From: a virus
Length of the DNA stretch: 40,964 nt
Direction: 5' to 3' (one strand)
IMG/VR virus record: IMGVR_UViG_3300034522_000037
Span: 1-40,964 of that record
In this document: positions 1 to 40,964 of the stretch, piece by piece
How the letters are laid out: the number at the start of each line of letters is the position of its first letter
Numbering within the stretch: the first letter of the stretch is position 1
The notes under the pieces: generated by a model
Told to the model about the DNA's origin: nothing
Database searches by the model: none
Seen by the model: the letters and a program-made list of their open reading frames with translations, nothing else
Translations under genes and position numbers: made by a program

Positions 1-127
1 CCGCCGGCGCAGCCGGCGCGGCGTGGCGAATTTCAAGGGCAAAGGTCACTGATAGGCCCTCCTGGCCAAGCAAGGGATGCCGGCGCAAACCGAGCAGCGG
101 CGCGCCGCGGCGTAGATCGCCAGGCGA
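1..127. repeat. Terminal self-overlap, copy 1 (identical to 40838..40964)
   Basis: Read directly: the first 127 nt (ccgccggcgcagccggcgcgg...gtagatcgccaggcga) recur exactly as the last 127 nt, and reading frames run through the junction. This is typical of a circular contig closed by an assembler. Unique length is about 40,837 bp. Confidence 0.95.
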
Positions 128-267
128 GCCTTGTCAATGTCACGACCGCAGCCCAGGCAGAACGGGCGGGGCCTCGAGGCCGAGCGCAGCTCGTCGTCGA
201 TCAGTTCAGCCAGCGCCACCGCATCGGCCTGGCTCAGCTCCAGGGGCGCAGCCTCAAGCGTCAGCAT
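46..267 (-). CDS. TraR/DksA-family C4 zinc-finger protein
   Basis: 73 aa. The C-terminal half CLGCGRDIDKARLAIYAAARRCSVC has CxxC-N17-CxxC spacing, typical of phage TraR/DksA-type zinc fingers. It is packed in the leftward early operon (14-nt overlap with the upstream ORF). Confidence 0.6.
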   Translation of the reverse strand: MLTLEAAPLELSQADAVALAELIDDELRSASRPRPFCLGCGRDIDKARLAIYAAARRCSVCAGIPCLARRAYQ

Positions 268-640
268 CGGCTACCACCTGGCGTGACGGCGGGGCGATCA
301 GCTGCGCGAATGCGTGACCGTCACGCGCCGCCAAAGCCGCGGCACCGTGCAACAGCAGGGTGATGGCCTCCTCGGCCGCCTGGGGGCCGTCGAAACCGCC
401 CGCGGCGATCACCTGGTTAAGCGCCTTCACCGTACCGGCGTACAGCTCGAGCGGCACCTTGACCGCCTCGGCTTTCAGCGCGGCCTGGGCCTCGGCCTGC
501 CGCTGCTTGCGCTTGCGCAGTCGAGCCAAGCGGCGGGCGCGGTCTTCTTTCGTCTCGCCAGCGGGCGGCATGTGGTCGAGCAGATCCTCGGCCGCGGGTA
601 ACGTGTCGCCGTTCTGAGTAGCCAGGCGCAGAGCGGCCAT
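254..640 (-). CDS. Hypothetical early protein
   Basis: 128 aa with high GC3. The ATG lies 1 nt after the stop of the upstream gene. It contains a basic coiled segment RRLARLRKRKQRQAEAQAA. No family recognised. Confidence 0.5.
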   Translation of the reverse strand: MAALRLATQNGDTLPAAEDLLDHMPPAGETKEDRARRLARLRKRKQRQAEAQAALKAEAVKVPLELYAGTVKALNQVIAAGGFDGPQAAEEAITLLLHGAAALAARDGHAFAQLIAPPSRQVVADADA

Positions 641-641
641 A

Positions 642-1232
642 TCAGCGGCCCCCGATCTTGCCGAGCACCAGCAGCGGCAGCGGGCGGCCGGTGCCAGTCG
701 ATACGGCGATCATTTCGTTAACCACCGCCGCGATTGCCTCGGCCCCCTCGCGTAGCATGCGGTCGACAGCCTCGGGGTCGTCGGTGCGGTCATAGCGGCC
801 GTTGTGCGCAGGCGTCGCGGAGGCGATGAAGTCGCCCAGCTCGCGGGTGACTTCGCCCAGGCGCGCCTGGGTGGCTGTCAGGGCCACACCGCTGACAAAC
901 TCAGGTAGACGCACGTCAAAGCAGCCGGCCATGGCCAGCAGCTCGTGACGGGCGGCGCGCTGGTAGTCTTCGGGCAGGCAGGCCAACCAGACCCACTTCC
1001 ATTCGAGCGGGAACGGCTGGGTGCCGTGGAAAATGCGAGAAACGCGGGTGCCCCAGGCTTTGCGGCCGCGCAGGTACTCGTTGACGTCGTCAGAGTCGGC
1101 GGCGAGATCTACCAAGCCAGCCGCAGAAAGGGCAGGAGCCAGGCGGTCATTAGCGAAACGCTCGACAGACCACTCCGAGTTGGTAAACCAGCGGCTAGTC
1201 TGATCAACAACGATGTCGCGCTCAGTTCGCAT
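642..1232 (-). CDS. First gene of the leftward early operon (cro/cII position), function unknown
   Basis: The ORF track gives 642..1286. I prefer the ATG at 1232 (MRTERDIVV...) because AGGA lies 7 nt upstream (aaggaacgtgct-ATG). It is divergent from the repressor gene. No HTH could be assigned with confidence. Confidence 0.5.
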   Translation of the reverse strand: MRTERDIVVDQTSRWFTNSEWSVERFANDRLAPALSAAGLVDLAADSDDVNEYLRGRKAWGTRVSRIFHGTQPFPLEWKWVWLACLPEDYQRAARHELLAMAGCFDVRLPEFVSGVALTATQARLGEVTRELGDFIASATPAHNGRYDRTDDPEAVDRMLREGAEAIAAVVNEMIAVSTGTGRPLPLLVLGKIGGR

Positions 1233-1379
1233 AGCACGTTCCTTCTCGAAAGTGGTCGCATGTGGGGTTATCCACATTCTCAACATTTAGAGAAAAAACG
1301 CAATTAGATTTCTATATCTAGAGTGCCAATGCGCGGCATATCGAAGGACAATAAACAACGGATTGAGGAGAGAGATTGA
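1233..1379. promoter_or_regulatory. Divergent promoter/operator region between the repressor and the leftward early operon
   Basis: 147-bp AT-richer spacer. It contains ttctc-N8-gagaa (1277..1294) and tagat-N6-atcta (1305..1320). The 14-mer caacatttagagaa (1281..1294) recurs as caatatttagagaa at 2064..2077. No promoter hexamers could be fixed. Confidence 0.5.
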
Positions 1380-2045
1380 ATGTCACGTGACTATCGGATA
1401 GGGGCCGCCATACGGAAACGGCGGCAAGCCCTTGGCTGGGGCCTCCAGCGACTGATCGAAACGGCAGGCGGGGAAATGTCCACCGGCTACCTTTCGACCC
1501 TAGAAACAACGGACGTGGCCCCGAGCGTTTATGTGGCCGACAGCCTGGCCAAAGCCCTGGGCACGACAGTCGACACGCTGCTGCGCGAGGCAAAGGATCC
1601 AGACGCCACCAGCGCGCCCGGCGAGCATGCCCAGCGGGTGCCGGTCATACCCTGGGAACTGGCCGCAGAATGGGCGCGAAACCCAGACGCCAAGCGCTTG
1701 CCGGGTGGTACCTGCTGGGTCATACCCAACGAAACACCACCCGGGCGAGTGTTCGGCCTGGTCGTGCGCGACGAGCTGATGCAGGCCCCGACGGGCGTCA
1801 GCTTCCCGCGCGGCTACACCATATTCGTCGACCCTATGCGCAAGGCGGTACCGGGCGATTTCATCATCGGCCACCTGGGCGACCCGACCGCGCCCGTGTT
1901 CAAAAAGCTGACCAAAGACGGCGCGCTGTTCTACCTGCGCGCGCTCAACCCACAGTTTCCGATGCAACAGGTTGGTGATACTTTCGAGGTTGTCGCGGTG
2001 GTCGTCGGCGTTCGGGCGACCTTCGACAAAGGGGATGTTCTATAA
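1380..2045 (+). CDS. Lambda-CI-like prophage repressor (XRE-type HTH plus S24/LexA-like C-terminal domain, nucleophile apparently lost)
   Basis: 221 aa with SD gaggag upstream. The N-terminus IGAAIRKRRQALGWGLQRLIETAG...YLSTLE looks like an HTH. The C-terminus FGLVVRDELMQAPTGVSFPRGYTIFVDPMRKAVPGDFIIGHLGDPTAPVFKKLTKDGALFYLRALNPQFPM aligns with lambda CI VEGNSMTAPTG...[22 protein letters not shown]. Leu occupies the position of the catalytic Ser; the Lys of FKKL is retained. Confidence 0.8.
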   Translation: MSRDYRIGAAIRKRRQALGWGLQRLIETAGGEMSTGYLSTLETTDVAPSVYVADSLAKALGTTVDTLLREAKDPDATSAPGEHAQRVPVIPWELAAEWARNPDAKRLPGGTCWVIPNETPPGRVFGLVVRDELMQAPTGVSFPRGYTIFVDPMRKAVPGDFIIGHLGDPTAPVFKKLTKDGALFYLRALNPQFPMQQVGDTFEVVAVVVGVRATFDKGDVL

Positions 2046-2313
2046 AAAGAGTCTGCCGGGCTTCAATATTTAGAGAAGACGGCTTATAGTCGCGGGCACT
2101 TACCCGCTACTAACATTGATTTTGCAAGGGCCAGAAAAGGAAAAGGCCGGGGGGCTTTAGCAACCCACCGGCCTTCACGATTGACGGCACCAACAACACA
2201 GGCACCTAAACCGAGCACAAAGCGTTTGATCTGTTTTGCGGGCAGACAAACGAAAAACACCGAACTTGGCAGTTCAGTGCTCAGTTTAGACCCCGTTGGT
2301 GGTGCGTCAATCG

Positions 2314-2344
2314 TTTGTACCTTTTCGCCTTTGTACTTTTGGCC
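2314..2344 (+). promoter_or_regulatory. Tandem pair of the TTGTAC(N)TTTTsGCC motif in the repA leader
   Basis: tttgtaccttttcgcc (2314..2329) is followed directly by tttgtacttttggcc (2330..2344), 12 nt before the repA ATG. The same motif pair occurs at 8735..8766 upstream of parA, with related copies at 39296..39342. Confidence 0.6.
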
Positions 2345-2355
2345 AAAGGGACAAA

Positions 2356-5300
2356 ATGACAAACGCACCAAAGGGCACCGGGCTTGCTGGCTTCTATCAA
2401 GAGCGTTTCGGCTCTGACCCATACGCGCTAGTCGACTACTTCTACGACCAGATCTCCGACGCCGCGGCTGACGCCTACGTCGACTGGTCTTCAATCTGCA
2501 ACGCCATCCACTACAACGGCGAGCGGCTGAAGAAGTACTCGAAGGTCAAGATCAAGGCCACCGACGCCAAATATAACGGCAAGGTGATGGCCTGGGGCGA
2601 CATCAAGACCGCCCGCGGTACCGACAAGCTCGAGCCCTTCGACTACCCCTTCCTGACCTTCTCAAACAACGCCACCAACCCCAGCACCTGGTCGGGCTTT
2701 GCCGCCCTGGTCGAGCTGTACGAGCGCGAGGGCGGCAAGCTCTCCGACGCCCGCCACGATCAGTGGAAACAGCAGCAGGAGCAGCGCCGCGCAGAGCGCG
2801 AGGCGCGCAAGCTCGAGGACGAACGCCGAGCACGCGAAAAGGCCGAGCGGATCCACGGCGAGCGCATGGCCTACGAGCGCGCATGGTTGACCGGCGAGGC
2901 GGCCAGCTTCCACTACGAACACGGCGAGCAGATCCGCCAGGGCACGGTCGAGGTGCTCGGCGACGAAGACGGCACCGCGGCCTACTTCCAGGCAAAGCAG
3001 ATCAGCGACATCGCGTCACGCTTCAAAATGCTGCGTATGCGTGACCGTCACGGTGTATTTACAGCCGTTCCAATGCACGACATCGACGGCAACTTCCTGG
3101 GCCTGCAGCGCCTCTATGACGACAAGAAGCTCCAGGGCACCGGCGTTAAAATGGATGGCGCGCACTGCGTCTTCGGCGACCTCGAGACCGCCAAGCGCCG
3201 CTACTCGGCCGAGGGCTTCGCCACTGGCGCAAGCATCTACCTGGCCGAGATCGAGGCGGGCAAGGGCGACGAAGTCGCCGTCGTGGTCACCTTCAACGTC
3301 GACAACCTGGTCAAGGTGCTGCGCGCCTATGCCAAGCGCTACCCGGCCTGGCGTTTCCACAACGCCGCTGACAACGACCAGTGGAAAGACGGCAACGCCG
3401 GCCTGCTGGCCGCCCTCGAGATCCACCGCGAACTGAAACACCCGGCCACCGTGCCAAACTTCGAGGCGCAGGACGAGCTGTTCGGCTGCAGCGCCCAGCA
3501 AATGACCGAGCTCAGAGCACAAAACCGGGCACCCGTTGTCGGGTTCAGCGCCGAGGAGCTGGCCGCGTTCAAGGCCGCCCGCAAAGGGCCGACCGACTGG
3601 AACGACTACCACGTCGCCTTCGGCCTCAAAGCCACCGCCAAAGCCCTGCGCGCCAACGGCAACGCCTTCAAATCATCCAAGGATTGGTTCGAGTTCTGCC
3701 TCGAGCGCCTGCCCTACAGCGGCAAGCGCCTGGGCGAGAAGAACGCCATGGCCGCCATAGCGGCCGGCATGATGCTTTCGCCGATCAAATTCAGCTATGA
3801 CCAGGTCGTCGCCGCGGTCTTCTCCAGGTTGCCGGAGGGGCTCGACACTACCGCCCGCTTCAAGATCCGCAGCCGCGCCCACTGGCTGGCCAAGCAAAAG
3901 CTGCAGCAGGCCAAACAGCTGCGCGGCTTCTCCGCTGCAGCGCTGGCCCGCCCCAACGTCCAGCACCTCAAGATCGACGGCGTGCGCGCCGAGCACGGCG
4001 GCATCATCCTGCCGGAACACATGGCCGCCCTGGTCGAGTCGCTGCAGGGCGTCATCATCGTGCGCGCGCCGATGGGCTCGGGCAAAACCGAGAAGCTGAT
4101 CGCGCCGCTGATGAAGGCCTCGAGCAAGGCCGCCTACGTGGCCCACCGGATCTCGCTGCTCGATGACGCCGCCGCGCGCCTGGGCGTCGAGCACTACAAG
4201 CAAGTTTTCGCCTGGCAGATGCCGCACGTCTCGCACCTGGCCTGCTGCGTCAACAGCCTGACCAAGCCCATGTTCTACAACGCCGAGGAGCGCAGCTGGT
4301 TTACCACCCTCGAGACGCTGTGCATCGACGAAGCCAGCCAGGTACTGCGCCACACCACCACCGGCCCGGTCGAAGGCCGGGTCAAGGTCATGGATGCGCT
4401 GATCGACGCCGTCGGGGCCGCCGAGCGCGTGCTGCTCTGCGACGCCGACGCCAACGACAGCCTGATCGAGTTCTGCGAGCTCGCGCGTCCTGGTCAAACC
4501 ATCACCGTGCTCGAGGTCAGCGGATCCGCCGAGCACGTCCGCATCGACCACACCGACGACGAAAGCGCCTGGCAGCTGGCCATCGAGCAGGTCAAAGCAG
4601 GCAAGCGCATTCTGGTGGCCAACGACTCGGCCGAGTCCGCCAAGAAAATGGCCGCGCTGATCGAGGCCATGGTCGAGCAGGGCAAGATCGCACCCGTGCG
4701 CATGCTCCTGGTGCATGCCGACAGCAAGGCCGACCAGGATGTCGAGGCCTTCCTATGCAACCCCAACGCCGAGGCCACCAAGTACGACGTGCTGATCTAC
4801 AGCCCGGCGATCAGCTCGGGCGTATCCATGACCACGCCACACTTCGACGCCCACTTCGGCCTGTTCAGCGGTAACACCGTCGGCCCATCCGACGCCATCC
4901 AGATGCTGCGCCGCGACCGCACCGCCCGCCGCTATATCGTCGGCATCGGCCACGCCAGCGTGCAACGCGAAACAGACCGCGAGCGGATCTGGCGCGGCCA
5001 CATGAAAGCCGACGAGGTCGCCTGCGAGTTCGAGGAGACCAGCGACGAGATCATCCTGCGCCGCCGCAAGACAGCCTTTGACCACCTCTACTTGGCCACC
5101 GTCACCGCCGAGAACAAGGCGCGCAACAACTTCGCCAACAACCTGCTGCTGATGCTGTACGCCGAGGGCTACAACGTCCAGCGCCTCGATGTCGGCAGCA
5201 TGGGCTTCGACCAGGACGATCTGACCAAGGCCTCGCGCAGCAACCGCAAAGCGGCCGGCGTGATCGTCTTCGACAAGCGCATGGATCTGATCGACAGCGT

Positions 5301-6240
5301 CGAAACGCCAGACGAGGAGCAGTACCTCAAGCTCAGCCGTCAGGAGGTGCGCAGCGAATCGGAAAGCGCCCAGCTCGACCGCTACCACATGGAGCACCAG
5401 CTCGGCGTCGACGAGATCACCGCCGACGACGTCGCCTTCTACGATGACCGCGGTATCGCCAAGGTGGTGGCCATGGAGCTGCTGCAGGCTGACGAGGAGC
5501 ACGCCAGGGCCTACGACAAGGCCCAGCGCAAGGCTAGGGTCACCCTGACCCTGCACCGCTGGAAAACGCCCGCGCACGCGATCCTGTGCCGCGTCTTCGA
5601 GATCCTCGGCGTCGACCGTTTCACGGGCGAGGGCGAGTTCGGTTCAGACCAGGCCCGCAAGGTGCTCGAGTACCTCACCAGCAGCGACGACCAGGTCGAG
5701 CTGTACAACGCCCTCAAGCTCGGCCGCTACATTCCCAGCACCAGCGCGCGGCTGTGCCCCACCACAGTGGTCAAGTCGATTTTTGACCGCCTCGGCCTGG
5801 CCCTGCAGAAGCGTAAGACGAACGGTGCCCACCTGTTCAGCGTCAACGCTGATAATTGGCAGTTCATCATGGCTTATTGCCAGCGCCGTGCGGCCAAGAA
5901 CGTCCACTCGCTGACCACACACGACCACGAAGCCACCCACCAGCCCAAGCTCGCGCCAGAGCCCGAGGCTGCGCCACAGCCCGCGCCACACGCGGCCGCC
6001 AGCGGTAGGGATACTTTGCAGTGTGATGGTAAGAGCGACAGTGGAAACTATCCCTTGACCGTGCGCGAGAAGATCTTCGCCGTTGCTTCTCGCTTAGCCC
6101 CACCCCTCGGTATCTCGTTGTCGCGATTCGTCGGGGCGCTGACGCCGGAGGTGGCGCTGGGGCTGGCCAAGCCAGGCGCAGAGCAGAGCAGAAGCTTGCG
6201 GCACACGCTTGCATATGCCGCCAAACTGCTACGATCATAG
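2356..6240 (+). CDS. repA: RepA-like multifunctional replication protein (primase/Toprim plus helicase)
   Basis: 1294 aa from ATG 2356 (the ORF-track start 2296 lies upstream of and reads through the repeat motif; aaggga lies about 5 nt upstream of 2356). Toprim-like EGFATGASIY ... NAADNDQW in the N-terminal third. Walker A VRAPMGSGKTEKL and Walker B LCIDEASQVL mid-protein. Size and layout match the single large RepA of N15-type linear plasmid prophages. Confidence 0.8.
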   Translation: MTNAPKGTGLAGFYQERFGSDPYALVDYFYDQISDAAADAYVDWSSICNAIHYNGERLKKYSKVKIKATDAKYNGKVMAWGDIKTARGTDKLEPFDYPFLTFSNNATNPSTWSGFAALVELYEREGGKLSDARHDQWKQQQEQRRAEREARKLEDERRAREKAERIHGERMAYERAWLTGEAASFHYEHGEQIRQGTVEVLGDEDGTAAYFQAKQISDIASRFKMLRMRDRHGVFTAVPMHDIDGNFLGLQRLYDDKKLQGTGVKMDGAHCVFGDLETAKRRYSAEGFATGASIYLAEIEAGKGDEVAVVVTFNVDNLVKVLRAYAKRYPAWRFHNAADNDQWKDGNAGLLAALEIHRELKHPATVPNFEAQDELFGCSAQQMTELRAQNRAPVVGFSAEELAAFKAARKGPTDWNDYHVAFGLKATAKALRANGNAFKSSKDWFEFCLERLPYSGKRLGEKNAMAAIAAGMMLSPIKFSYDQVVAAVFSRLPEGLDTTARFKIRSRAHWLAKQKLQQAKQLRGFSAAALARPNVQHLKIDGVRAEHGGIILPEHMAALVESLQGVIIVRAPMGSGKTEKLIAPLMKASSKAAYVAHRISLLDDAAARLGVEHYKQVFAWQMPHVSHLACCVNSLTKPMFYNAEERSWFTTLETLCIDEASQVLRHTTTGPVEGRVKVMDALIDAVGAAERVLLCDADANDSLIEFCELARPGQTITVLEVSGSAEHVRIDHTDDESAWQLAIEQVKAGKRILVANDSAESAKKMAALIEAMVEQGKIAPVRMLLVHADSKADQDVEAFLCNPNAEATKYDVLIYSPAISSGVSMTTPHFDAHFGLFSGNTVGPSDAIQMLRRDRTARRYIVGIGHASVQRETDRERIWRGHMKADEVACEFEETSDEIILRRRKTAFDHLYLATVTAENKARNNFANNLLLMLYAEGYNVQRLDVGSMGFDQDDLTKASRSNRKAAGVIVFDKRMDLIDSVETPDEEQYLKLSRQEVRSESESAQLDRYHMEHQLGVDEITADDVAFYDDRGIAKVVAMELLQADEEHARAYDKAQRKARVTLTLHRWKTPAHAILCRVFEILGVDRFTGEGEFGSDQARKVLEYLTSSDDQVELYNALKLGRYIPSTSARLCPTTVVKSIFDRLGLALQKRKTNGAHLFSVNADNWQFIMAYCQRRAAKNVHSLTTHDHEATHQPKLAPEPEAAPQPAPHAAASGRDTLQCDGKSDSGNYPLTVREKIFAVASRLAPPLGISLSRFVGALTPEVALGLAKPGAEQSRSLRHTLAYAAKLLRS

Positions 6241-6248
6241 CGCTGTGA

Positions 6249-6268
6249 TACTGTACGTTTAACCAGTA
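6249..6268 (+). promoter_or_regulatory. LexA (SOS) box-like palindrome
   Basis: tactgtacgtttaaccagta = TACTGT-N8-CCAGTA, one mismatch from the gammaproteobacterial CTGT-N8-ACAG consensus. It lies in the low-GC gap after the repA stop, about 30 nt upstream of a strong SD (ggaggg) and a small ORF. No convincing -35/-10 identified. Confidence 0.35.
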
Positions 6269-6299
6269 GTTGGCTAAACAACAAGGGGAGGGAAGTACC

Positions 6300-6566
6300 T
6301 TGCAATGTCGTGAGAAAATGGACAGAGCGTCCGCCAAGCTGAGCCGCGCCAGGTCGGCGCTTATGTTGGCCTTGAAGGCCGGCCCGGAAGCATCAAAGGG
6401 CGAGCTGCTCGATGCGATCAGCGCCGCCCTTGATCATGTTGACGCCGCAGATGCGGCCCTGGGAGAGGATGAAATGCGAAGTGTGCGGCCGGGGCCTTTG
6501 GCCCCGGCTGTCGAGCAGGGTCACCCGCGGTTGGTGGTTGCCGCTGCAGCTTGTAACGCCTCGTAA
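6300..6566 (+). CDS. Hypothetical small helical protein (possible SOS-controlled gene)
   Basis: In-frame TTG at 6300 lies 7 nt after ggaggg (ORF-track start 6270; the internal ATG is at 6318). GC3 is high through the first ~55 codons. However, the ORF runs through the hairpin 6488..6508 and overlaps the protelomerase 3' end by 46 nt, so the extent and reality are uncertain. Confidence 0.3.
   Translation: MQCREKMDRASAKLSRARSALMLALKAGPEASKGELLDAISAALDHVDAADAALGEDEMRSVRPGPLAPAVEQGHPRLVVAAAACNAS
6488..6508 (-). terminator. GC hairpin just downstream of the protelomerase stop
   Basis: gccggggcc-ttt-ggccccggc is a 9-bp perfect stem, 13 nt after the minus-strand stop at 6521. There is no clear T-run, so terminator function is inferred only. 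Confidence 0.4.
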
Positions 6567-8203
6567 GCCTCCTCGCGGTTGCGCCCGGTACCGCTGGCCA
6601 CTACAACGCCATTGACCCGCGCCACCGCAACCCACCGCCCCTCGGCCTCCTCTGTCACCCTGACACGTGGTCGAGCTTTGGCAACCTCAACCGGAACCAC
6701 CGGCGCAATATCTTCGACAGGCCGGCCGGCCGTGGCCAAGGCCTCGGCGGCCAGGTCGAGATACTCCTTAATCACCGGCCGGTAACTGCCGACGTTGGTC
6801 GCGATAGCCTTCTGCGAGATCCTCGCGTCGGGCGCAGTCTTGACCGTATCCTTCACCCAGCGGTGGATCTTCTGCAGCGCCTCGCGCCCTGCGATCTGCT
6901 CGTGCTCGTCCAGCGCCTCGAGCGCCTCGAGGCGGCTAGCGTATTTGCTGGCGGTCGCCGCCGGCTTCGCCGGCGCGGTGTAGTCGATCTTGAAGGCCTT
7001 GTAGCTCTCCTGGGTGTCCATATCCTCGTGGCCCAGCATCTCGCGCCAGAAGACCGTCTCGTTGACCTTGGCCCAGCGCGGGTCGCGGGCGAAGTGCAGC
7101 TCGAACACGACCCGCGCCCACAGTGCCCGGCTGTCCTTGAATACGCGCTCCTGGTTGCCGAACACGCGCTTGGCCAGGGTGTTTAGGGTCTTGGCCACTC
7201 GCCGGTTCACCTCGGTATTGTCCAGGTGCTGCAGCTCGAGCACCTCGGGCATGGCCCGCAACTTGGCGAAGGCCTCGAGCACCAGGTCGGCTTTCAGCAG
7301 GGTGTAGATCCGGTAGCTCTCGCCATAGTCAACGCCCCCGCGGCGCTTGGCCTGGCCCGAGAACTCGAGCTCGAACTCGCCGACCTTCTCGAAGCGCCCC
7401 AGCTTGAGGATCTCGATTTCTCGCCGGCCGGTGGCCAGCGCCAGGCCCAGCGCTAGGTAGGAGAAAAACGGGGTCGCGTGGCCGTCGGCACGGATCTCGC
7501 TCGCGCTCAGCAGCTCGCTGATCTTGTCGACCAGCCAGTGGTAGTTGATCGAGACGGTGTTGGTGGCGCGCTGCTCGAGGGTCTCGACGGCATCCGTGGC
7601 CAGCTGCGCCTTGGTCGCCGCCGGCAGGGTCAGGTGGCGCATGATCTCGTGGTCGAGCTTCATACCCTTGACCGCCTCGAAGGCGTCGTCGTCGCGATCC
7701 TGGCGCGCCTGGGCCAGCAGGTCGCGGTGCGCCATGCGCAGCGCGGTGATGTCCTGCAGGTCGGCCATGGCCAGCAGCTGCTCGGCATAGCGCGGGTGGT
7801 GGCGCGCCAGGCGCTCGCAGGTCTCCTCGATGGCGTGGTGCCGCCAGTTCTGCTCGGTCACAGCCTTGCGAACGGTGGTCAAGTAGCGGCGGTAGCTCGA
7901 GGCCTTGAGCTTGTCCGTTTCCTTGCGGCGGCGATCCTCATACAGCTTATTTTTCAGCCGGTCGGCCAGGCGCGACAGGCGCTTGGTCTTGTCGCCGCGG
8001 CTCAGGCTGTCGTCGGCGTCGATGGCCTTGACGTCCTTTATCAGCTGATCGATCAGCGGCTGCAGCTCGACCTTCTGCCGCGTCGCGCCACCGTAATTGC
8101 CAAAGCTAACCCGCTCGCGCTGGTCGATAGCCTCGGCCGCATTGCCGGCCTCGTCACGCACCTGGTCAACCGCTGCGTCTTTTGTTGCTGCCTTCTTAGC
8201 CAT
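6521..8203 (-). CDS. telN: Protelomerase (telomere resolvase, TelN/TelK-like)
   Basis: 560 aa with SD aggagg 5-6 nt upstream. Tyrosine-recombinase-like signature blocks remembered from TelN/TelK are present: LALATGRREIEIL, FKDSRALWARVVF, MLGHEDMDTQESYKAFKIDY. It sits directly beside a large palindrome, as telN sits beside telRL in N15. Confidence 0.85.
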   Translation of the reverse strand: MAKKAATKDAAVDQVRDEAGNAAEAIDQRERVSFGNYGGATRQKVELQPLIDQLIKDVKAIDADDSLSRGDKTKRLSRLADRLKNKLYEDRRRKETDKLKASSYRRYLTTVRKAVTEQNWRHHAIEETCERLARHHPRYAEQLLAMADLQDITALRMAHRDLLAQARQDRDDDAFEAVKGMKLDHEIMRHLTLPAATKAQLATDAVETLEQRATNTVSINYHWLVDKISELLSASEIRADGHATPFFSYLALGLALATGRREIEILKLGRFEKVGEFELEFSGQAKRRGGVDYGESYRIYTLLKADLVLEAFAKLRAMPEVLELQHLDNTEVNRRVAKTLNTLAKRVFGNQERVFKDSRALWARVVFELHFARDPRWAKVNETVFWREMLGHEDMDTQESYKAFKIDYTAPAKPAATASKYASRLEALEALDEHEQIAGREALQKIHRWVKDTVKTAPDARISQKAIATNVGSYRPVIKEYLDLAAEALATAGRPVEDIAPVVPVEVAKARPRVRVTEEAEGRWVAVARVNGVVVASGTGRNREEAYEALQAAAATTNRG

Positions 8204-8261
8204 GGTTGCCTCCTATTTGGCATTCACCTTAAACCCTAGCGCACATTCTATACCTGTCAAC

Positions 8262-8278
8262 CATACACTGCAAGCCCT
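8262..8278. repeat. Inverted copy of the tel-flanking 17-mer
   Basis: catacactgcaagccct is the reverse complement (15/17) of agggcttggggtgtatg, found twice on the other side of the palindrome. Confidence 0.6.
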
Positions 8279-8332
8279 ATACCATAATCATATACACCTA
8301 TAGCCATAAGTCACGATGCTGGCAGCATGGGG

Positions 8333-8412
8333 ATAGGGCCAAGGGTGCATGCACCCTGGCCCCATTCTATACGTATAGAATGGGGCGCGGGTGCATGCAC
8401 CCTTGGCCCTAT
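8333..8412. repeat. telRL-like telomere resolution site (80-bp palindrome)
   Basis: The symmetry centre lies between 8372 and 8373. The core ccattctatac|gtatagaatgg is a perfect 22-bp palindrome. The 40-nt arms match at 38/40 positions. Each arm also carries the self-complementary 14-mer gggtgcatgcaccc (8343..8356, 8389..8402). As I recall it, the N15 telO core is CCATTATACGCGCGTATAATGG, which has the same length and the same CCATT...AATGG ends. Confidence 0.85.
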
Positions 8413-8420
8413 TATGTTCT

Positions 8421-8461
8421 AGGGCTTGGGGTGTATGCTGTCGCAGGGCTTGGGGTGTATG
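8421..8461. repeat. Two direct copies of a 17-mer flanking the tel palindrome
   Basis: agggcttggggtgtatg occurs at 8421..8437 and 8445..8461 (24-bp period), with an inverted relative at 8262..8278. In addition, tatacacctatagcc (8291..8305) and tatacacctttagcc (8474..8488) are direct repeats on either side, and the half-core cattctatac recurs at 8244..8253. Confidence 0.7.
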
Positions 8462-8734
8462 GATGCGCACACATATACACCTTTAGCCCTTAATGCTTTA
8501 GGGATAACAAGGCAGGAGAGCGGCGCGCGATTGCTGGCAATGGATAGCAGGAGGCAAGGGGCGACAAGTCGAAAAACTACACGACGGCGGCCATGCACCA
8601 TAAGGACGGCGCGTTGCGCCTGCTTGTTTATGGCGCGGGAAACCCGCGCCGGCTGGGGCTTCCAGATCCTGCAGAAAGGACGGGCCATTGCGGGCGGACA
8701 ATGTCGGCGCTATCGCGCCTGCTGTTTTTTCTCT

Positions 8735-8780
8735 TTTGTACTTTTGGCCCGTTGTACTTTTTCGCCAATGGCCCTATATT
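8735..8780 (+). promoter_or_regulatory. parA promoter with a tandem TTGTAC(N)TTTTsGCC motif pair (candidate centromere/operator)
   Basis: tttgtacttttggcc (8735..8749) and gttgtactttttcgcc (8751..8766). TTGTAC (8752..8757), a 17-nt spacer and TATATT (8775..8780) form a sigma70-like promoter 34 nt upstream of the parA ATG. Confidence 0.6.
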
Positions 8781-8813
8781 GTGACCACACCAACAACCGA
8801 GGAGGGCGCGGCA

Positions 8814-9467
8814 ATGGCTGCAAAGGTGATAGCGGTACTCAACCAGAAGGGCGGCACGTCGAAAACGACCACCGCCACCAACGTGGCCAGCTGCCTGGCC
8901 GTTAAGCATGGAAAGCGGGTGCTACTGGTCGACCTAGACCAGCAAGGCTCTGCAACCGACTGGGCGGCGTCCAGGCCAGAGGCCGAGGGCGACGCGGGCC
9001 TGATCCCTACCGTATCCATGGGCAAGGCCCTGGCGCGCGACCTGCCGCGCGTTGCGGGTGGCTATGACTACGTCGTCGTCGACGGCGTGCCGCAAATCAG
9101 CGAGCTGACTGCCGCGGCCATCCGGGCGGCCGACGCGGTACTGATCCCGGTGCAGCCGAGCCAGTACGACATATGGGCGTGCGGCGACCTGGTGCAGCTG
9201 GTGAAAGACCGCCAGGAGATCGCCGACGGCAAGCCGGTGGCGGCGATGATGATCGCGCGGGCAATCCCGGGCACCGTGCTCGAGCGCGACGTGCGCGGCA
9301 TCCTCGAGGCCTACGACCTGCCAATACTGAGCAGCCAGACCTGCCAGCGGCAGTCCTACGCTAGCGGCATCGAGAAGGGCCGCAGCGTCATGGATCTGCC
9401 AGACGACAACAAGGCGCGCCTCGAGATCGAAGCGCTGACCGCCGAACTATTGGAGCTGACCCAATGA
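8814..9467 (+). CDS. parA: ParA/Soj-family partition ATPase (small, type Ib-like)
   Basis: 217 aa from ATG 8814 (aggagg 8 nt upstream; the ORF-track start 8688 reads through the promoter). It has the deviant Walker A VLNQKGGTSKTTTATN, then LLVDLDQQGSAT and YDYVVVDG. Confidence 0.85.
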   Translation: MAAKVIAVLNQKGGTSKTTTATNVASCLAVKHGKRVLLVDLDQQGSATDWAASRPEAEGDAGLIPTVSMGKALARDLPRVAGGYDYVVVDGVPQISELTAAAIRAADAVLIPVQPSQYDIWACGDLVQLVKDRQEIADGKPVAAMMIARAIPGTVLERDVRGILEAYDLPILSSQTCQRQSYASGIEKGRSVMDLPDDNKARLEIEALTAELLELTQ

Positions 9468-9778
9468 GCACCACCGCAAGTAAGCCGACCATCGAGCGGC
9501 CCGGGCGAGCGCAGCCGCTGGCCGAGGAGCACGTCGAGAAGGCCCGCAAGGCCGTAGTGGCCGACAGCGACGAGAAACAGCTCAAGGTGCTGGCCGCGCC
9601 CAAGTACCACCGGGGCATGGCCGAGCTAAAGAACATGACCACCGACAGCGTGCCGGTTAAGCACCTGCTGCTCGAGGCCATCGAGGATCTGTTCGAGAAG
9701 TACGGGCGGGGCGAGGGGCGGTTCAAGGTTGACGACGTGCCAGAACTGCGCCGCCGGCTTGAATCGCTGATGAAGTGA
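9464..9778 (+). CDS. Small partition adaptor / centromere-binding protein (ParG-like, possible RHH)
   Basis: 104 aa. Its start overlaps the parA stop (ATGA). Size and position fit the small ParB/ParG partner of short ParA proteins. A basic N-terminal tail is followed by KQLKVLAAPKYHRGMAEL (possible beta-strand plus helix). Assignment is by context. Confidence 0.5.
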   Translation: MSTTASKPTIERPGRAQPLAEEHVEKARKAVVADSDEKQLKVLAAPKYHRGMAELKNMTTDSVPVKHLLLEAIEDLFEKYGRGEGRFKVDDVPELRRRLESLMK

Positions 9779-9846
9779 AGAAACAGCCCGGCAGCGGGGG
9801 CAACCGCTAACCGGGCCAGACACATAGACCTTAGAGGGTTCCGAAT

Positions 9847-9996
9847 ATGTCCGCACGCGACTATACCACCGCGGCAAGCCTGCCGCTGCACCTGGCGCGA
9901 GATCCGCGCTATCGCGACCTGGTGCGCCAATTCGCCGAGCAACAGTGCCTGACGGCCTGGCACGGCATCCTGCGCATGATCGGGGAGGCCGCCTGA
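9847..9996 (+). CDS. Hypothetical small protein (49 aa, below the ORF-track cutoff)
   Basis: ATG at 9847 lies 8 nt after gaggg. It reads MSARDYTTAASLPLHLARDPRYRDLVRQFAEQQCLTAWHGILRMIGEAA. Its TGA overlaps the next start (TGATG at 9994..9998), suggesting translational coupling. Confidence 0.45.
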   Translation: MSARDYTTAASLPLHLARDPRYRDLVRQFAEQQCLTAWHGILRMIGEAA

Positions 9997-10283
9997 TGAG
10001 CATCACAGAGAACGTATCCAGCGCCATCGAGCCCGAGGATCTGCACCGCGTCCGCGCCATCGCCGCGGCCATCCTCGAGCACCAAGGCTTCCAGGCGTGC
10101 GAGCTGCTCGACCTGGTGATCACCGAGGAGGCACCGGCCGACACAATCACCCCGCGCCGGGCGCGCGCCGAAAGCGCCGTGCAACTGGCCGCCGTGATCG
10201 TCAACTACCTTCGCCAGGAGTTCGAGATCCCAGGCGTCGACCACGAGCTCCTGCGCGCACTGCAGCGGGAGGCCAACCTATGA
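9996..10283 (+). CDS. Hypothetical acidic protein
   Basis: 95 aa from ATG 9996 (MSITENV...; gggagg upstream). The ORF-track start at 9945 is less likely. The stop overlaps the next start (ATGA). Confidence 0.5.
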   Translation: MSITENVSSAIEPEDLHRVRAIAAAILEHQGFQACELLDLVITEEAPADTITPRRARAESAVQLAAVIVNYLRQEFEIPGVDHELLRALQREANL

Positions 10284-10438
10284 GCCGCAACGCATCCAGC
10301 CCCGCCGAGCAGCTTTTCGGCCTGATTTTCGCCGGCCTGGCCGCCCTGGTAGCCGCCGCCGTATTTATCCGCCGCATCTACACCATGCGCCTCGAAGAGG
10401 CCGCCAACGATCACCAGCAAGGGAGCGATAACGAATGA
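10280..10438 (+). CDS. Small single-pass membrane protein
   Basis: 52 aa (MSRNASSPAEQLFGLIFAGLAALVAAAVFIRRIY...) with one hydrophobic helix. It has ATGA overlaps with both neighbours. The ORF-track start 10097 gives an Arg/Pro-rich, non-protein-like extension. Confidence 0.5.
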   Translation: MSRNASSPAEQLFGLIFAGLAALVAAAVFIRRIYTMRLEEAANDHQQGSDNE

Positions 10439-11569: not shown

Positions 11570-12454
11570 TCAGTGCGTTTTGTTGGCGCGCGGCAGCATC
11601 GGGTGATGCTCCTCGACAGACATTGCCGCAAGGTAAATCGGCTCAGCAGCAGCCGCCACGGCGCTGACCAGCTCGTTACTGGCCGTCGCAATGCGCTGGA
11701 AGTGCTCGCCACCCTCCCGCGCCGTGCGCGCCAGGCGCAGATAGCGCTCGCGGTCTACCTCCATCATCTGAGGCGGCACGTAGTACTGCACCGCCGCCAG
11801 GCCGAGCTTTGACGCAAGCCGAACGGTTGACCGGCGGGCGATCGCCTCCCAGGCCAGCGGTGTGAACAGCGCGCGCTGCTCGCCTCGGTCGTCACGGAAA
11901 AGCCAGACGCTGCCGGCCGGAAACTCTCGCTCGTAGCGATGATAAAGACTCAGCGTCGAGTTGCGCAGGCGGTAGCCGACCAGCACGTCGATCTCCTGAT
12001 CGCTCAGCCACAGATTGCCGGCCGTATCCCACTCGGCACCCACCACGCCCTTGCCGAAGTCCAGTTCGACTACGCGCCCGGTGAACTCCGCGCCCACCTC
12101 GGCGTTGTATTGCTCGGACTGCTGGCGCAGCAACTCGGCCTCCATGCGGTTGAAGGCGGCGATGTAAGCCTCTTTCCAGCGCGCAGCCTCTTTGCCGGTG
12201 AAACCCATGCACAGAAAGGTGAAGCCGTCGCGCGTCATGCGAAAGAACGGCTCCGGCTTGTTGTTTGAGCCGCGCCGGGAACACTCCGCAAAATTGCGGA
12301 GTGTGAATTCTGGCGAGCAATCTAGGCTCCTGATGCGCTTTAGAACGTCATCGTGGCGCTTGCCAAATACCTCGGCGACAACCAATGAAGTTGTAGTCGG
12401 GCGACCATCCTCCATGGTTACGGCGGACGAGTCCAAGACGTGTTGGTCGGTCAT
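11570..12454 (-). CDS. Rha-family phage regulatory protein / putative antirepressor
   Basis: 294 aa. The N-terminal SLVVAEVFGKRHDDVLKRIRSL ... FFRMTRDGFTFLCMGFTGKEAARWKEAYIAAFNRME matches the remembered Phage_pRha (Ant/Rha) signature. The C-terminal half is unassigned. Confidence 0.7.
   Translation of the reverse strand: MTDQHVLDSSAVTMEDGRPTTTSLVVAEVFGKRHDDVLKRIRSLDCSPEFTLRNFAECSRRGSNNKPEPFFRMTRDGFTFLCMGFTGKEAARWKEAYIAAFNRMEAELLRQQSEQYNAEVGAEFTGRVVELDFGKGVVGAEWDTAGNLWLSDQEIDVLVGYRLRNSTLSLYHRYEREFPAGSVWLFRDDRGEQRALFTPLAWEAIARRSTVRLASKLGLAAVQYYVPPQMMEVDRERYLRLARTAREGGEHFQRIATASNELVSAVAAAAEPIYLAAMSVEEHHPMLPRANKTH
12281..12304. repeat. 24-bp palindrome inside the rha-like gene
   Basis: acactccgcaa-aa-ttgcggagtgt has perfect 11-bp arms. 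Its central 18-mer ctccgcaaaattgcggag recurs (17/18) at 12795..12812. Confidence 0.8.
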
Positions 12455-19946: not shown

Positions 19947-21053
19947 TCAGGCGGGAGCCGGTAGTGCGCTCGCTGCCAGCGGCGGCGAAGCGCGAGCATG
20001 AGGAACAGGAGCATCGAGACCTCCAGACGATCGCGTAAGAATCAGATCCGCCAGCACCCCCTCCACCGTCCTCTGCGCCTGGCAGTGCTTGCTGTAGGCC
20101 AGGAAGCTGTTCACGCGTTGGCGAACGTGCTCCTGATCGATCAGGCCGGCGCGGTATTGGGTGGCCAGCTGCCGGAACGATGCTTTGGCGCGTTTGATGT
20201 TGCGTTTGCGCGGCAGGATGTGGGTTGGCCAGATGCGGTAGCCACAGAAGTCGAGACCGCGCTGCCAGGGATGGATCGCGGTCTTGGGGTTCATCGCCAG
20301 GCATAGGCTGTTGGCCGTGGCGGATAGCGCGCGCATGGCCTCGGCGGCAGCAGCCTTGTTCGGCAGTACGGCGATGAAGTCGTCCATGTAGCGCACGTAA
20401 TACTTGATGCCCAGCTGATCCTTCGCAACGTGGTCGAGGTGGTTCAGCAGGACGTTGGCGCCGAGCTGGCTGGTCAGCGCACCGACCGGCAAGCCGATGC
20501 CAGCTTCGTGGCCGTAGCCTGCGATGATCTGGCGCCACAGCCAGAGGGCGTCGGGGTCGCGCACGGTGCGCTCGATCTCGCGCAGCAGCGAGGCGTGGCG
20601 GATGCTGGAAAAGAAGCGGCTGATGTCGGCCTTGAGTACGTAGCAGCCGTCGCCGTGGTTGCGCTTGGCCACCCGCAGGAAGTGCTGCGCCCTGGCGACA
20701 GCCGCTTGGGTGCCTTTGCCGACGCGACAGGCGTAGGAGTCATGGATGAATTTGCGCTCGAACAGCGGCTCGACCACGCGAACAAGGGCGTGATGAATGA
20801 CGCGATCGGCGAAGGGCGGCGCCTGAATCAGCCGCAGCTTAGGCTCCTTTACAACGAATTCGCGCTGTTTGCCGGGTCGCCAGCTCTTCCACAGCAGGTG
20901 ATTCTGCAGGTTGACCAGATTCTCCTCAACGTTGGCAGAGAAGCGCAGCACCGAGCCGCGCTCGCGCTTGCCGCGCCGGGCTTCCAGGTAGGCGGCGTAA
21001 AGATTCTCGAAACTGGTGATCTGGCCCCATAGGCCAGCGGTTGTAACAGGCAC
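19947..21053 (-). CDS. DGR-type reverse transcriptase
   Basis: 368 aa with a GTG start. RT motifs are present: KLRLIQAPPFADRVIHHAL, YVLKADISRFFSSI, IGLPVGALTSQLGANVLLNHLDH (LGxxxSQ, DGR hallmark), YVRYMDDFIAV (YMDD box), LDFCGYRI. It lies immediately 3' of a template repeat and an Avd-like gene. Confidence 0.9.
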   Translation of the reverse strand: MPVTTAGLWGQITSFENLYAAYLEARRGKRERGSVLRFSANVEENLVNLQNHLLWKSWRPGKQREFVVKEPKLRLIQAPPFADRVIHHALVRVVEPLFERKFIHDSYACRVGKGTQAAVARAQHFLRVAKRNHGDGCYVLKADISRFFSSIRHASLLREIERTVRDPDALWLWRQIIAGYGHEAGIGLPVGALTSQLGANVLLNHLDHVAKDQLGIKYYVRYMDDFIAVLPNKAAAAEAMRALSATANSLCLAMNPKTAIHPWQRGLDFCGYRIWPTHILPRKRNIKRAKASFRQLATQYRAGLIDQEHVRQRVNSFLAYSKHCQAQRTVEGVLADLILTRSSGGLDAPVPHARASPPLAASALPAPA

Positions 21054-21219
21054 AGCAGAAACCTTACCTCATGCGAGGGATAGGGCAGGCGCCGCCGCAT
21101 TGGCCGAGGCTACTAGCCGCGACGCCCTGTAAATCTTCGACAACACGGTCTGGACAAAGGCCCCAAAGGAAACGCACTGGACGCCGGCCCGTGAGCCTGG
21201 CGCCTTCTGGCGGTAATCG
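21054..21219 (-). ncRNA. DGR spacer region between TR and the RT gene (part of the template RNA)
   Basis: 166-nt non-coding gap in the position of the Sp region of the Bordetella BPP-1 DGR RNA. The role is inferred from position only. The 87-aa track ORF across TR and spacer is not considered real. Confidence 0.5.
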
Positions 21220-21331
21220 TTTGCGAGGCGGCCGCCGATGTTCGTGTTCGCGTTCGACGCGGCGTTGTTGACGTTCAGATAGAACAGGCCGGCGTTCGAG
21301 CCGTTGCCGTAGTTGCCACCGTAATAAGCCA
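21220..21331 (-). repeat. DGR template repeat (TR)
   Basis: 21220..21322 aligns without gaps to 22648..22750: 91/103 identical, and all 12 differences fall at TR positions that are A on the minus strand. The conceptual translation is Asn(AAC)-rich: GGNYGNGSNAGLFYLNVNNAASNANTNIGGRLA. Nine further nt (to 21331) are homologous but carry two non-A mismatches. Confidence 0.9.
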
Positions 21332-21344
21332 TTGCCCAATGTTG

Positions 21345-22569: not shown

Positions 22570-22586
22570 TTTGCAAAACTCCTAAA

Positions 22587-22613
22587 GGGGCGCCCGCTCG
22601 GCGGGCTGGCCCC
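22587..22613 (-). other. GC hairpin downstream of VR (candidate DGR target-recognition hairpin and/or terminator)
   Basis: ggggcgcccgc-tcg-gcgggctggcccc: a 5-bp cccgc/gcggg core stem extended by ggggc/gcccc across an asymmetric internal loop. It lies 34 nt 3' of the end of TR/VR homology, between the fibre stop and the next start. Confidence 0.55.
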
Positions 22614-22640
22614 GTTACATGACTCAGGTGACAGGATTCA

Positions 22641-40886: not shown

Positions 40887-40964
40887 TGATAGGCCCTCCT
40901 GGCCAAGCAAGGGATGCCGGCGCAAACCGAGCAGCGGCGCGCCGCGGCGTAGATCGCCAGGCGA
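40838..40964. repeat. Terminal self-overlap, copy 2 (identical to 1..127)
   Basis: Same 127-nt string as 1..127, compared base by base. Confidence 0.95.

Follow-up and report, generated by a model that had tools for sequence, protein, structure and literature searches.

A Pseudomonas-lineage relative of phages phiHAP-1 and VP882 with a protelomerase and a homologous telomere resolution site, very likely maintained as a hairpin-ended linear plasmid prophage

The window, by which we mean the whole stretch of 40,964 nucleotides analyzed here, is the complete genome of a temperate P2-like myovirus, kin of Halomonas phage phiHAP-1 and Vibrio phage VP882. Its prophage is very likely a linear plasmid with hairpin ends, generated by a phage-encoded protelomerase at an 80-bp palindrome located at positions 8333 to 8412. 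This reading is carried by what the enzyme is, by a site that is homologous to known ones and unique in the window, by the failure to find an integrase, and by the molecule ends of close relatives, which fall at the center of the dyad. The host is most likely Pseudomonas; the GC content of the window is ~65%. Telomere-phage biology is known mainly from N15, phiKO2, PY54, phiHAP-1, and VP882, and the window adds to this small family a complete and well-delimited phage of the Pseudomonas lineage, with the resolution site pinned to the base. The system is of a known kind, and Pseudomonas telomere phages of the same clade were reported in 2025 (PMC12042878); the understanding of the telomere resolution mechanism is unchanged by it.

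The assembly is circular, with a unit length of 40,837 bp, because positions 40838 to 40964 repeat bases 1 to 127 exactly, a 127-nt assembly overlap. The virion and lysis modules are complete (terminase, portal, capsid, sheath, tube, tape measure, baseplate, lysozyme, and Q); therefore, the window is a phage and not a plasmid alone. A large replication protein is encoded by repA (2296 to 6240, plus strand; 1314 aa as listed and 1294 aa as called elsewhere). It shares 51% identity over 1276 aa with the phiHAP-1 “replication” protein gp36, and P. aeruginosa records carry its homologues under the name “plasmid replication protein, CyRepA1 family.” A prophage repressor gene (1380 to 2045, plus strand), with HTH and S24 peptidase domains (Pfam HTH_31 and Peptidase_S24, 2.9e-10), corresponds to the repressor region of phiHAP-1. 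The partition ATPase gene parA (8814 to 9467, plus strand; Pfam AAA_31, 5e-28, CbiA, and VirC1) probably starts at the ATG at 8814, the mechanical ORF beginning with a TTG at 8688, and its product is 55% identical to phiHAP-1 ParA. A small ORF follows (9464 to 9778, plus strand), in the same position as phiHAP-1 gp32 and VP882 gp52; it possibly encodes a ribbon-helix-helix ParB/ParG-like partner, its match to Antitox_RHH (2.5e-4) being weak and under the gathering score. No integrase or recombinase was found among the window ORFs of at least 150 aa, as judged by Pfam scan or by a match to phiHAP-1 or PGAP-annotated genes. The ORF scans thus bear out the original prediction on this point, and the window combines what is expected of a linear plasmid prophage: its own RepA and ParA, without an integrase.

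The ORF at 6521 to 8203 (minus strand, ATG start) encodes 560 aa and is, by sequence homology, a protelomerase, or telomere resolvase, gene (tel). With Pfam PF16684 (TelN, TelK, ResT) as the protelomerase family model, all three protelomerase domains score above their gathering thresholds: ResT-TelK_cat (E value of 7.5e-29, 101 bits against a cut-off of 27, profile positions 2 to 180 of 181), TelK_N (3.5e-9, 37.3 bits against 28), and TelK_stirrup (1.4e-7, 32 bits against 27). The TelK structure 2v6e also matches, with an E value of 1.9e-57 and an alignment covering query residues 39 to 490. The active-site set is intact, since R261, K286, R359, H392, and Y401 (in the contexts GRR261, GQAK286, KDSR359, LGH392, and ESY401) align with the active-site residues of TelK, which we take to be R275, K300, R383, H416, and Y425 (numbering after Aihara et al. 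2007; chain numbering is offset by 20 in the structure alignment). The TelN/TelK-like peptide blocks from which the enzyme had been recognized are indeed present in this ORF, and the profile test returned protelomerase families, not ordinary integrases. The closest characterized protelomerase is that of phiHAP-1 (58% identity), followed by that of VP882 (52%); the N15 (TelN) and phiKO2 (TelK) enzymes, of the same family and with the same active site, are ~33% identical. NCBI uses the name “protelomerase family protein” for P. aeruginosa and P. alcaligenes proteins of the same 90%-identity cluster. The C-terminal 50 aa gave only weak dsRBD-like matches in a profile search against the PDB, and the only sigma-70-like match for tel in a promoter scan lies at 8314 to 8287.

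The telRL-type telomere resolution site starts 130 bp from the tel start at 8203, and its dyad axis falls at 8372/8373, exactly where the original prediction had put it. The arms (8333 to 8372 and 8373 to 8412) have no spacer and are complementary at 38 of 40 positions, the mismatched pairs being 8357/8388 and 8358/8387. This palindrome has no rival in the window, as the runner-up with 40-nt arms reaches 24/40. Twenty shuffles gave best palindromes of 22 to 25 out of 40, and a palindrome of 38/40 or better would be expected ~4e-15 times by chance. The 22-mer earlier described as the perfect core is present at 8362 to 8383, but the perfect core is longer than had been stated: it spans 28 bp (8359 to 8386), reads GCCCCATTCTATAC/GTATAGAATGGGGC directly from the sequence, and is the telO equivalent. 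The central hexamer is TACGTA (8370 to 8375), and, by analogy with TelK and TelN biochemistry, staggered cuts would flank it.

In both position and sequence, the palindrome is homologous to the sites that phiHAP-1, VP882, and N15 carry between parA and tel. Homologous cores occur in these three phages and in more than 20 relatives, in which they lie 160 to 240 bp upstream of tel. The gene order of the window (repA, small ORF, tel, palindrome, parA, small ORF) is the same in phiHAP-1, whose core, CCCATACTATAC/GTATAGTATGGG, is in register with that of the window and identical to it except for one symmetric substitution (CATACTATAC versus CATTCTATAC). In both, the distances of GGGCCA and ATGCAC from the axis are the same. 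The phiHAP-1 palindrome is longer, with 58-nt arms, and its arm element, TGTGCATACATA, is not symmetric, whereas that of the window is perfectly so. VP882 has the same synteny and the same central CCCATACTATACGTATAGTATGGG, yet its arms are far less symmetric than those of the window outside the core, and it carries between tel and repA a LuxR-type regulator gene that the window does not have. As in the window, phiHAP-1, and VP882, parA and tel of N15 are transcribed divergently around the palindrome. The annotated telRL of N15 (NC_001901, 24775 to 24830) reads ...CCCATTATACGC/GCGTATAATGG..., with the cut at 24802/3, and agrees with the telO core given in the original prediction. This 22-bp core has the same length and the same CCATT...AATGG ends as that of the window, and 8 of 11 bases are identical in register from the center; its central hexamer, however, is CGCGCG rather than TACGTA, and the N15 arm motif, TTGTGTGCTGATA, lacks the dyad symmetry of the window element. 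Closer to the window, CCCATTCTATAC/GTATAGAATGGG is common to most relatives of the Pseudomonas clade. The TATACGTATA core is absent from CP075795.1, from P. frederiksbergensis 36C6, and from IMG/VR contigs L014 to L016, L019, L023, and L027, which either use a different site or have their ends missing.

The window itself contains only the uncut RL junction, and the evidence on molecule ends comes from its relatives. The record NZ_CP096940.1 (pNY5520-NR, P. aeruginosa NY5520) is a perfect inverted dimer of 77,056 bp (2 x 38,528 bp); it is perfectly palindromic about the core center over at least 11,429 nt per arm and terminates exactly at ...CCCCATTCTATAC. Positions 1 to 8372 of the window align to 8364 to 1 of the pNY5520-NR monomer, and positions 8373 to 10353 align to 38528 to 36550. 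Both unit ends thus align to 8372/8373, a pattern characteristic of covalently closed hairpins or replicated telomere junctions. A further inverted junction about the core is found in pF010_1 (NZ_CP115281.1), in which the junction on the tel side is misassembled inside the tel gene, so that only the axis on the parA side is usable. The core is likewise the center of inverted junctions in two IMG/VR contigs from one isolate, whose perfect arms measure at least 2,765 and at least 1,877 nt. In principle, inverted-dimer records could be circular head-to-head replication intermediates rather than the result of hairpin read-through; both belong to one telomere-resolution cycle. Taken with the enzyme, the homologous site, and the RepA and ParA genes without an integrase, these ends support the extrachromosomal linear prophage that the original prediction had proposed.

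Contigs ending 1 to 19 nt from the axis (L004, L005, L029 to L031, L033, and L035) were considered as proof of hairpins and downgraded because L043 and L045 cross the axis, enter the true other arm, and even so end close by. An uncut palindrome is thus also a place where assemblers break, and contig ends in its vicinity are ambiguous. The same phage is seen in another contig, which matches the window at 100% identity over 4,865 nt and begins 13 nt past the axis, possibly at an assembler break.

Each arm contains a copy of the 14-mer GGGTGCATGCACCC, at 8343 to 8356 on the tel side and at 8389 to 8402 on the parA side, and these are its only occurrences in the window. The 12-mer consensus, GGTGYATRCACC, lies 18 to 29 positions from the axis, a distance fixed in all arms of the Pseudomonas clade; allowing up to two mismatches, just two further, weak matches were found in the window. 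Outside the palindrome, a pattern search identified 18-bp units of the form TAGGGC-N4-GGTGYATG, three on the tel side (8221 to 8238, 8262 to 8279, and 8291 to 8308, all on the minus strand) and three on the parA side (8420 to 8437 and 8444 to 8461 on the plus strand and 8474 to 8491 on the minus strand). The tel-side units overlap the tel promoter match. Ten of the 13 matches to this unit in the window, for which ~6 would be expected overall, fall within 8221 to 8491: the six flanking units and four inside the palindrome arms. Units akin to TAGGGC...GTATGTATG flank the phiHAP-1 and VP882 sites, those of phiHAP-1 being of the TAGGGC...GTATG type. A separate repeat pair (8602 to 8618 and 8676 to 8692) lies nearer parA. 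The N15 target spans 310 bp with L1-L3/R1-R3, and TelN stays bound to it and protects the hairpins (PMC12624138). The core, arm motif, and degenerate flanking copies of the window match N15 telO, L3/R3, and L1, L2/R1, R2, respectively (PMC12624138). By this analogy, the conserved and nearly symmetric GGTGYATRCACC element is a probable counterpart of L3/R3, and together with the six flanking units it resembles the N15 L1-L3/R1-R3 layout.

These features suggest a life cycle of the telomere phage type (PMC10612081). By homology with TelK and TelN, the genome would circularize after infection, and a dimer of the 560-aa protelomerase would bind the palindrome. Tyr401 would then make staggered cuts ~6 bp apart about 8372/8373 through 3'-phosphotyrosyl intermediates, and each cut strand would be rejoined to its own complement. 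This is predicted to give a linear duplex closed covalently by a hairpin at either end, with tel and repA toward one end and parA and the virion genes toward the other; the duplex would be replicated by RepA and partitioned by ParA as a linear plasmid prophage. Replication through the hairpins would yield LL and RR palindromic junctions, to be resolved by the same protelomerase. As with L3/R3 and L1, L2/R1, R2 of N15, the GGTGYATRCACC elements and the six 18-bp units are most likely extra protelomerase contacts. They would remain on each telomere after resolution, where they could help to keep the enzyme in place, shield the hairpin, and control the divergent promoters of tel and parA.

Alternatively, the palindrome would have a regulatory or structural role, such as that of an operator acting in both directions, a terminator, or a cruciform at an origin, and the phage, its tel gene being vestigial, would be maintained either on a circular plasmid or by integration. 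The location of the palindrome between divergent promoters and the circular assembly with an intact palindrome agree with this possibility, yet the virion and prophage forms are circular permutations of each other; if both are sequenced together, a circular assembly is therefore expected anyway. Moreover, Tel retains its catalytic residues and all three domains, the core shows conservation with the cut site annotated in N15, related molecules end at the axis to the base, and no integrase was found among the ORFs of at least 150 aa, all of which make a role other than resolution extremely improbable.

If the palindrome is a resolution site, its repeats may still be read differently. The 18-bp units and the symmetric arm elements could be the centromere or operator of the parA/small-ParB system instead of protelomerase sites, in which case telomere resolution would divide the centromere between the two telomeres, half to each. 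In type Ib partition systems, a ParA without an N-terminal DNA-binding domain, followed by a small partner gene, goes with repeat arrays upstream of parA. The window has such a ParA with a small RHH-like ORF after it, the units are concentrated in the intergenic region between tel and parA, and their GGTG..CACC dyad symmetry would suit a dimeric binder. Nevertheless, the units are distributed about equally to the two sides of the axis and form part of the arms, where their distance from the cut site is constant, which is the layout of N15 tos, attributed to TelN (PMC12624138); in addition, more than 320 bp separate the end of the last unit from the start of parA, and other repeats, the pair noted above, are closer to parA. 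We regard a partition role as unlikely, and protelomerase contacts as the preferred reading of these repeats. Much less likely still is a control of resolution by alternative small cruciforms or three-way structures formed by the 14-mers, which had been raised in the original prediction. The 14-mer is indeed perfectly self-complementary in both arms and is surrounded by a 28-bp secondary dyad (8336 to 8363, 12 of 14 arm positions matching), and symmetric variants occur among relatives, namely GGTGCATGCACC and GGTGTATACACC. However, a single strand of the palindrome folds into one continuous hairpin (-46.3 kcal/mol) without side hairpins, and a lone 14-mer gives a stem of 5 bp at most. The element is asymmetric (GGTGCATACACC or GGTGTATGCACC) in ~13 of the 38 distinct arms, about one third, making a required alternative cruciform unlikely, and the symmetry is missing in phiHAP-1 and in one sub-clade. 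All four Y/R combinations occur among the larger set of sites, and strict covariation, in which GGTGCATGCACC and GGTGTATACACC would differ by a compensatory change preserving the sub-palindrome, was accordingly rejected.

A more speculative extension of the telomere model, which we think doubtful, is that each telomere keeps a docking platform, made of GGTGYATRCACC and three 18-bp units, for a protective cap and that phages of the clade swap genome arms at the telomere. If so, the dyad-symmetric GGTGYATRCACC element of the platform would be centered 23.5 bp from the hairpin tip and would recruit more protelomerase dimers, or a second dimeric factor, as the cap. The 28-bp core is common across the clade; therefore, co-resident telomere phages would exchange whole arms exactly at the telomere. 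One contig fits such an exchange: its tel side matches the window at 100% identity and its parA side at 77%, and the changeover falls within 14 nt of the axis.

At the genome level, synteny with phiHAP-1 (Hapunavirus HAP1) extends over the whole length, the P2-like virion module included, with 35 to 68% aa identity; N15 and phiKO2, in contrast, are siphoviruses. A megablast search with the 3.5-kb tel region (6000 to 9500) found no match among phage records, and relatives were reached by protein and pattern searches only. In ICTV practice, the genus-level threshold is roughly 70% genome-wide nucleotide similarity. Given the lack of a megablast match for this region and the protein identities with phiHAP-1, the phage is related to the genus Hapunavirus (phiHAP-1 and VP882) but probably lies outside it. 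A phiHAP-1-like phage, HMP1, has been verified experimentally as a linear plasmid (PMC9170930).

The nearest relatives are telomere phage-plasmids of Pseudomonas and Stutzerimonas, such as pNY5520-NR, pF010_1, and those of Pseudomonas sp. HS-2 and S. kunmingensis 28M-8. Their Tel proteins are 85 to 86% identical to that of the window, and nucleotide identity is ~78 to 89% over most of the genome. All of them have the core of the window unchanged, and the P. aeruginosa records and HS-2 have its arm element unchanged as well. The window also has a Rha regulator gene and a diversity-generating retroelement, a difference from phiHAP-1; alignment to pNY5520-NR is weak or absent at 10.4 to 12.8 kb (Rha gene) and at 19.8 to 26.4 kb (retroelement and tail-fiber genes). 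The ~40 aligned natural arm variants show which positions of the site may vary, which is useful for the design of substrates and closed-linear DNA tools. At least two “circular 75-77 kb plasmids” of P. aeruginosa in RefSeq/PLSDB are very probably ~38-kb hairpin-ended linear molecules recorded as inverted dimers. The size of two more records (P. monteilii and P. corrugata) also looks suspiciously doubled.

A minus-strand ORF at 6521-8203, in which the TelN/TelK-like peptide blocks of the original prediction were all located, specifies a 560-aa protelomerase (Tel). Three Pfam domains, ResT-TelK_cat (E = 7.5e-29), TelK_N (3.5e-9), and TelK_stirrup (1.4e-7), all exceed their curated cut-offs, and integrase families are absent among its Pfam matches, which bears out the proposed identity. 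The top solved structure is TelK of phiKO2 (2v6e; E = 1.9e-57), whose active-site residues align opposite R261, K286, R359, H392, and Y401. Among phage proteins, Tel most resembles the protelomerase of Halomonas phage phiHAP-1 (58% identity), followed by that of Vibrio phage VP882 (52%), and identity to those of N15, phiKO2, and PY54 is about 33%. Tel also falls in one 90%-identity cluster with NCBI "protelomerase family protein" entries of P. aeruginosa and P. alcaligenes, encoded on contigs of 37-39 kb. A C-terminal module of ~50 aa (window 6521-6680, residues about 508-560; KPR..V.E..GRWVAVA.VNGVEVA.G.G....A..AL) is kept in all Hapunavirus-like protelomerases, phiHAP-1 and VP882 included, and gives two independent weak matches to the double-stranded-RNA-binding fold (Pfam dsrm, E = 0.031; RNase III dsRBD of 1o0w, E = 0.04).

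An inverted-repeat search recovered the predicted 80-bp palindrome; its arms, 8333-8372 and 8373-8412, abut directly and pair at 38 of 40 positions. Mismatches occur only at 8357/8388 and 8358/8387; therefore, the perfect core measures 28 bp (8359-8386) and not 22 bp, as originally stated. When every possible centre in the window was scanned, none apart from 8372 exceeded 24/40; the best palindromes in 20 shuffles of the window reached 22-25/40, and the chance expectation for one of at least 38/40 is about 4e-15. The palindrome ends 40 nt out from the axis (8372|8373), and thus the window represents the uncut RL junction, like virion DNA. Its gene order (repA, small ORF, tel, palindrome, parA, small ORF) follows the arrangement of phiHAP-1, VP882, and N15, in which tel and parA are divergent and the palindrome occupies the intergenic region between them. 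The centre of the phiHAP-1 site, CCCATACTATAC|GTATAGTATGGG, is identical in VP882 and differs from that of the window, CCCATTCTATAC|GTATAGAATGGG, by one substitution mirrored in both arms; the spacing of GGGCCA and ATGCAC from the axis is the same in the window as in phiHAP-1. Compared in register, the annotated telRL of N15 (cut at 24802/3) has the same base as the window at 8 of 11 positions and also the CCATT...AATGG ends; therefore, the likeness to the N15 telO core noted in the original prediction was correct.

Protein-guided and pattern searches reached 22 related loci in IMG/VR (Tel identity, 56-89%), further contigs from Pseudomonas sp. HS-2, P. frederiksbergensis, and Stutzerimonas kunmingensis, and, in PLSDB, P. 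aeruginosa "plasmids" at about 86% nucleotide identity to the window. One of the latter, pNY5520-NR (NZ_CP096940.1), was deposited as a 77,056-bp circle with two tel genes head-to-head. The record is perfectly palindromic around 38528/38529, at the centre of CCCCATTCTATAC|GTATAGAATGGGG, over arms of 11,429 nt or more, and terminates exactly at ...CCCCATTCTATAC, so that 77,056 = 2 x 38,528. Window 1-8372 aligns with monomer positions 8364-1 and window 8373-10353 with 38528-36550; therefore, the P. aeruginosa unit begins and ends exactly at 8372|8373. This inverted dimer may stem from reads rounding covalently closed hairpins or from a replicated intermediate carrying the inverted LL/RR junctions; either origin belongs to the telomere-resolution cycle. 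A second "plasmid", pF010_1, is likewise mirrored at the parA-side axis, and in two contigs of a single isolate the sequence is perfectly palindromic about the core (at least 2,765 and at least 1,877 nt per arm). A contig from SRR11566706, 100% identical to the window across 4,865 nt, starts 13 nt beyond the axis; contig ends near the axis are only weak evidence for hairpin ends because some contigs also break near the uncut junction.

Both 75-79 kb circular Pseudomonas plasmid records that we checked (pNY5520-NR, NZ_CP096940.1, L039; pF010_1, NZ_CP115281.1, L036, L037) consist of two inverted copies of a ~38-kb element, mirrored at the telomere core. Most likely, each is a linear molecule with hairpin ends whose sequence was read through and wrongly deposited as a circle. 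From size only, we suspect the same of NZ_AP022474.1 and NZ_CP102178.1 (79,236 and 75,476 bp). In the related locus L008 (IMGVR_UViG_3300016663_000068), a 90-bp palindrome at 170-260 lacks the core and fuses the tel-side flank to its own reverse complement within the GGTGTATACACC element, probably an assembly fold-back at the small palindrome.

The self-complementary 14-mer GGGTGCATGCACCC is present in each arm (8343-8356 and 8389-8402), as predicted, with no third copy across the window. Counted outward from the axis, about 38 distinct aligned arms have GGTGYATRCACC in common at positions 18-29; the arm element occurs as GGTGCATGCACC (about 12 arms), GGTGTATACACC (about 13), GGTGCATACACC (about 12), or GGTGTATGCACC (1), always with invariant GGTG and CACC flanks, and phiHAP-1 carries TGTGCATACATA at this position. 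Judging from these variants, perfect self-complementarity is not required. The single strand folds into one continuous hairpin (-46.3 kcal/mol; z = -12.9) in which side hairpins are absent; therefore, a required alternative cruciform is unlikely, and the suggestion that the 14-mers could form one was not upheld, self-complementarity being imperfect in part of the arms.

The 14-mer is a portion of an 18-bp unit, TAGGGC-N4-GGTGYATG, with 10 of its 13 window matches inside 8221-8491 (four in the arms and three in each flank); about 6 would be expected window-wide. Comparable units also border the phiHAP-1 and VP882 sites. The natural TelN target of N15 spans about 310 bp, comprising telO, L3/R3, and degenerate L1, L2/R1, R2 copies; assembly of several TelN molecules on this target has been proposed, and the protein remains bound, guarding the hairpins against SbcCD (PMC12624138). 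The arm element and flanking units mirror this layout, on which basis we assign the units, with moderate confidence, as putative protelomerase sites. Alternatively, they could be a centromere or operator of the adjoining ParA system. A second repeat set lies nearer parA (8600-8730), with AAGGACGG.C..TTGCG at 8602 and 8676 and GCGCCTGCT.GTTT at 8616 and 8715, each repeat paired with a GC-rich hairpin and then a T run; this set could be a parA operator or centromere, or a terminator pair.

Positions 1-300 of the related contig L034 (JGI 3300034523 Ga0310143_00956) were compared with window 8260-8480. The tel side matches the window at 100% across 1,500 nt, whereas on the parA side identity drops to 77% across the 109 nt present, with the switch at most 14 nt from the axis. 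Likewise, the tel sides of pF010_1 and pNY5520-NR agree (both about 87-88% identical to the window), whereas their parA sides show 78% and 84%, respectively. These patterns suggest that arms have been exchanged at the telomere core. On a more novel but less likely reading, the symmetric arm element could cap the telomere together with the array of units, and whole genome arms could be swapped at the shared core, as the mosaic contig L034 suggests.

Window 1-127 recurs exactly at 40838-40964, so that the assembly is circular with a unit of 40,837 bp; the repeat fits a sequenced mix of virion and prophage DNA, which are circularly permuted relative to one another. Synteny with phiHAP-1 extends over the modules for replication, immunity, lysis, and the P2-like virion (35-68% aa identity). 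Pfam scans of the remaining ORFs identified the partition protein ParA, a small RHH-like protein, an S24 repressor, a Rha-family regulator (11570-12454; Phage_pRha, 4.6e-28), a DnaQ-like exonuclease, a lysozyme, an antiterminator Q, portal and tail proteins, and a reverse transcriptase (19947-21053, minus strand; RVT_1, 5e-21). The Rha segment has little similarity to pNY5520-NR. No integrase or other recombinase was found among the window ORFs by these scans and the phiHAP-1 comparison, or in the PGAP annotations of close relatives, in agreement with the original prediction, as is the presence of parA and repA.

The protelomerase gene and its telRL-like palindrome are confirmed, and their reading as a linear-plasmid prophage is supported by the enzyme, the site, the lack of an integrase, and the ends of relatives at 8372|8373. 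The type of element was already known: the life cycle we infer is the textbook telomere-phage cycle (PMC10612081), HMP1, a phiHAP-1-like phage, is a linear plasmid by experiment (PMC9170930), and telomere phages of the Pseudomonas clade had already been reported (PMC12042878). The window is clearly the same kind of element as the Hapunavirus telomere phages; since the tel region gave no nucleotide-level match to phage records, it probably falls outside that genus.

A sister group of loci (L016; L027, P. frederiksbergensis 36C6; L038, CP075795.1 pPHPALO418; L014, L015, L019, and L023) has Tel proteins 62-68% identical to that of the window, a figure that excludes L038. The TATACGTATA core was not found upstream of tel in these loci; contigs end 47-208 bp short of tel or bear other repeats, such as GCCCAATATA...TATATTGGGC, and the group has either a different telomere sequence or missing ends.

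The window also carries a diversity-generating retroelement (19947-25208), a segment without counterpart in the pNY5520-NR monomer alignment. It includes the reverse transcriptase gene, and its template repeat (21220-21331) corresponds to a variable repeat (22648-22759) at the 3' end of a minus-strand tail-fibre gene (22641-25208), and 12 of the 14 differences between the two repeats fall at template adenines.
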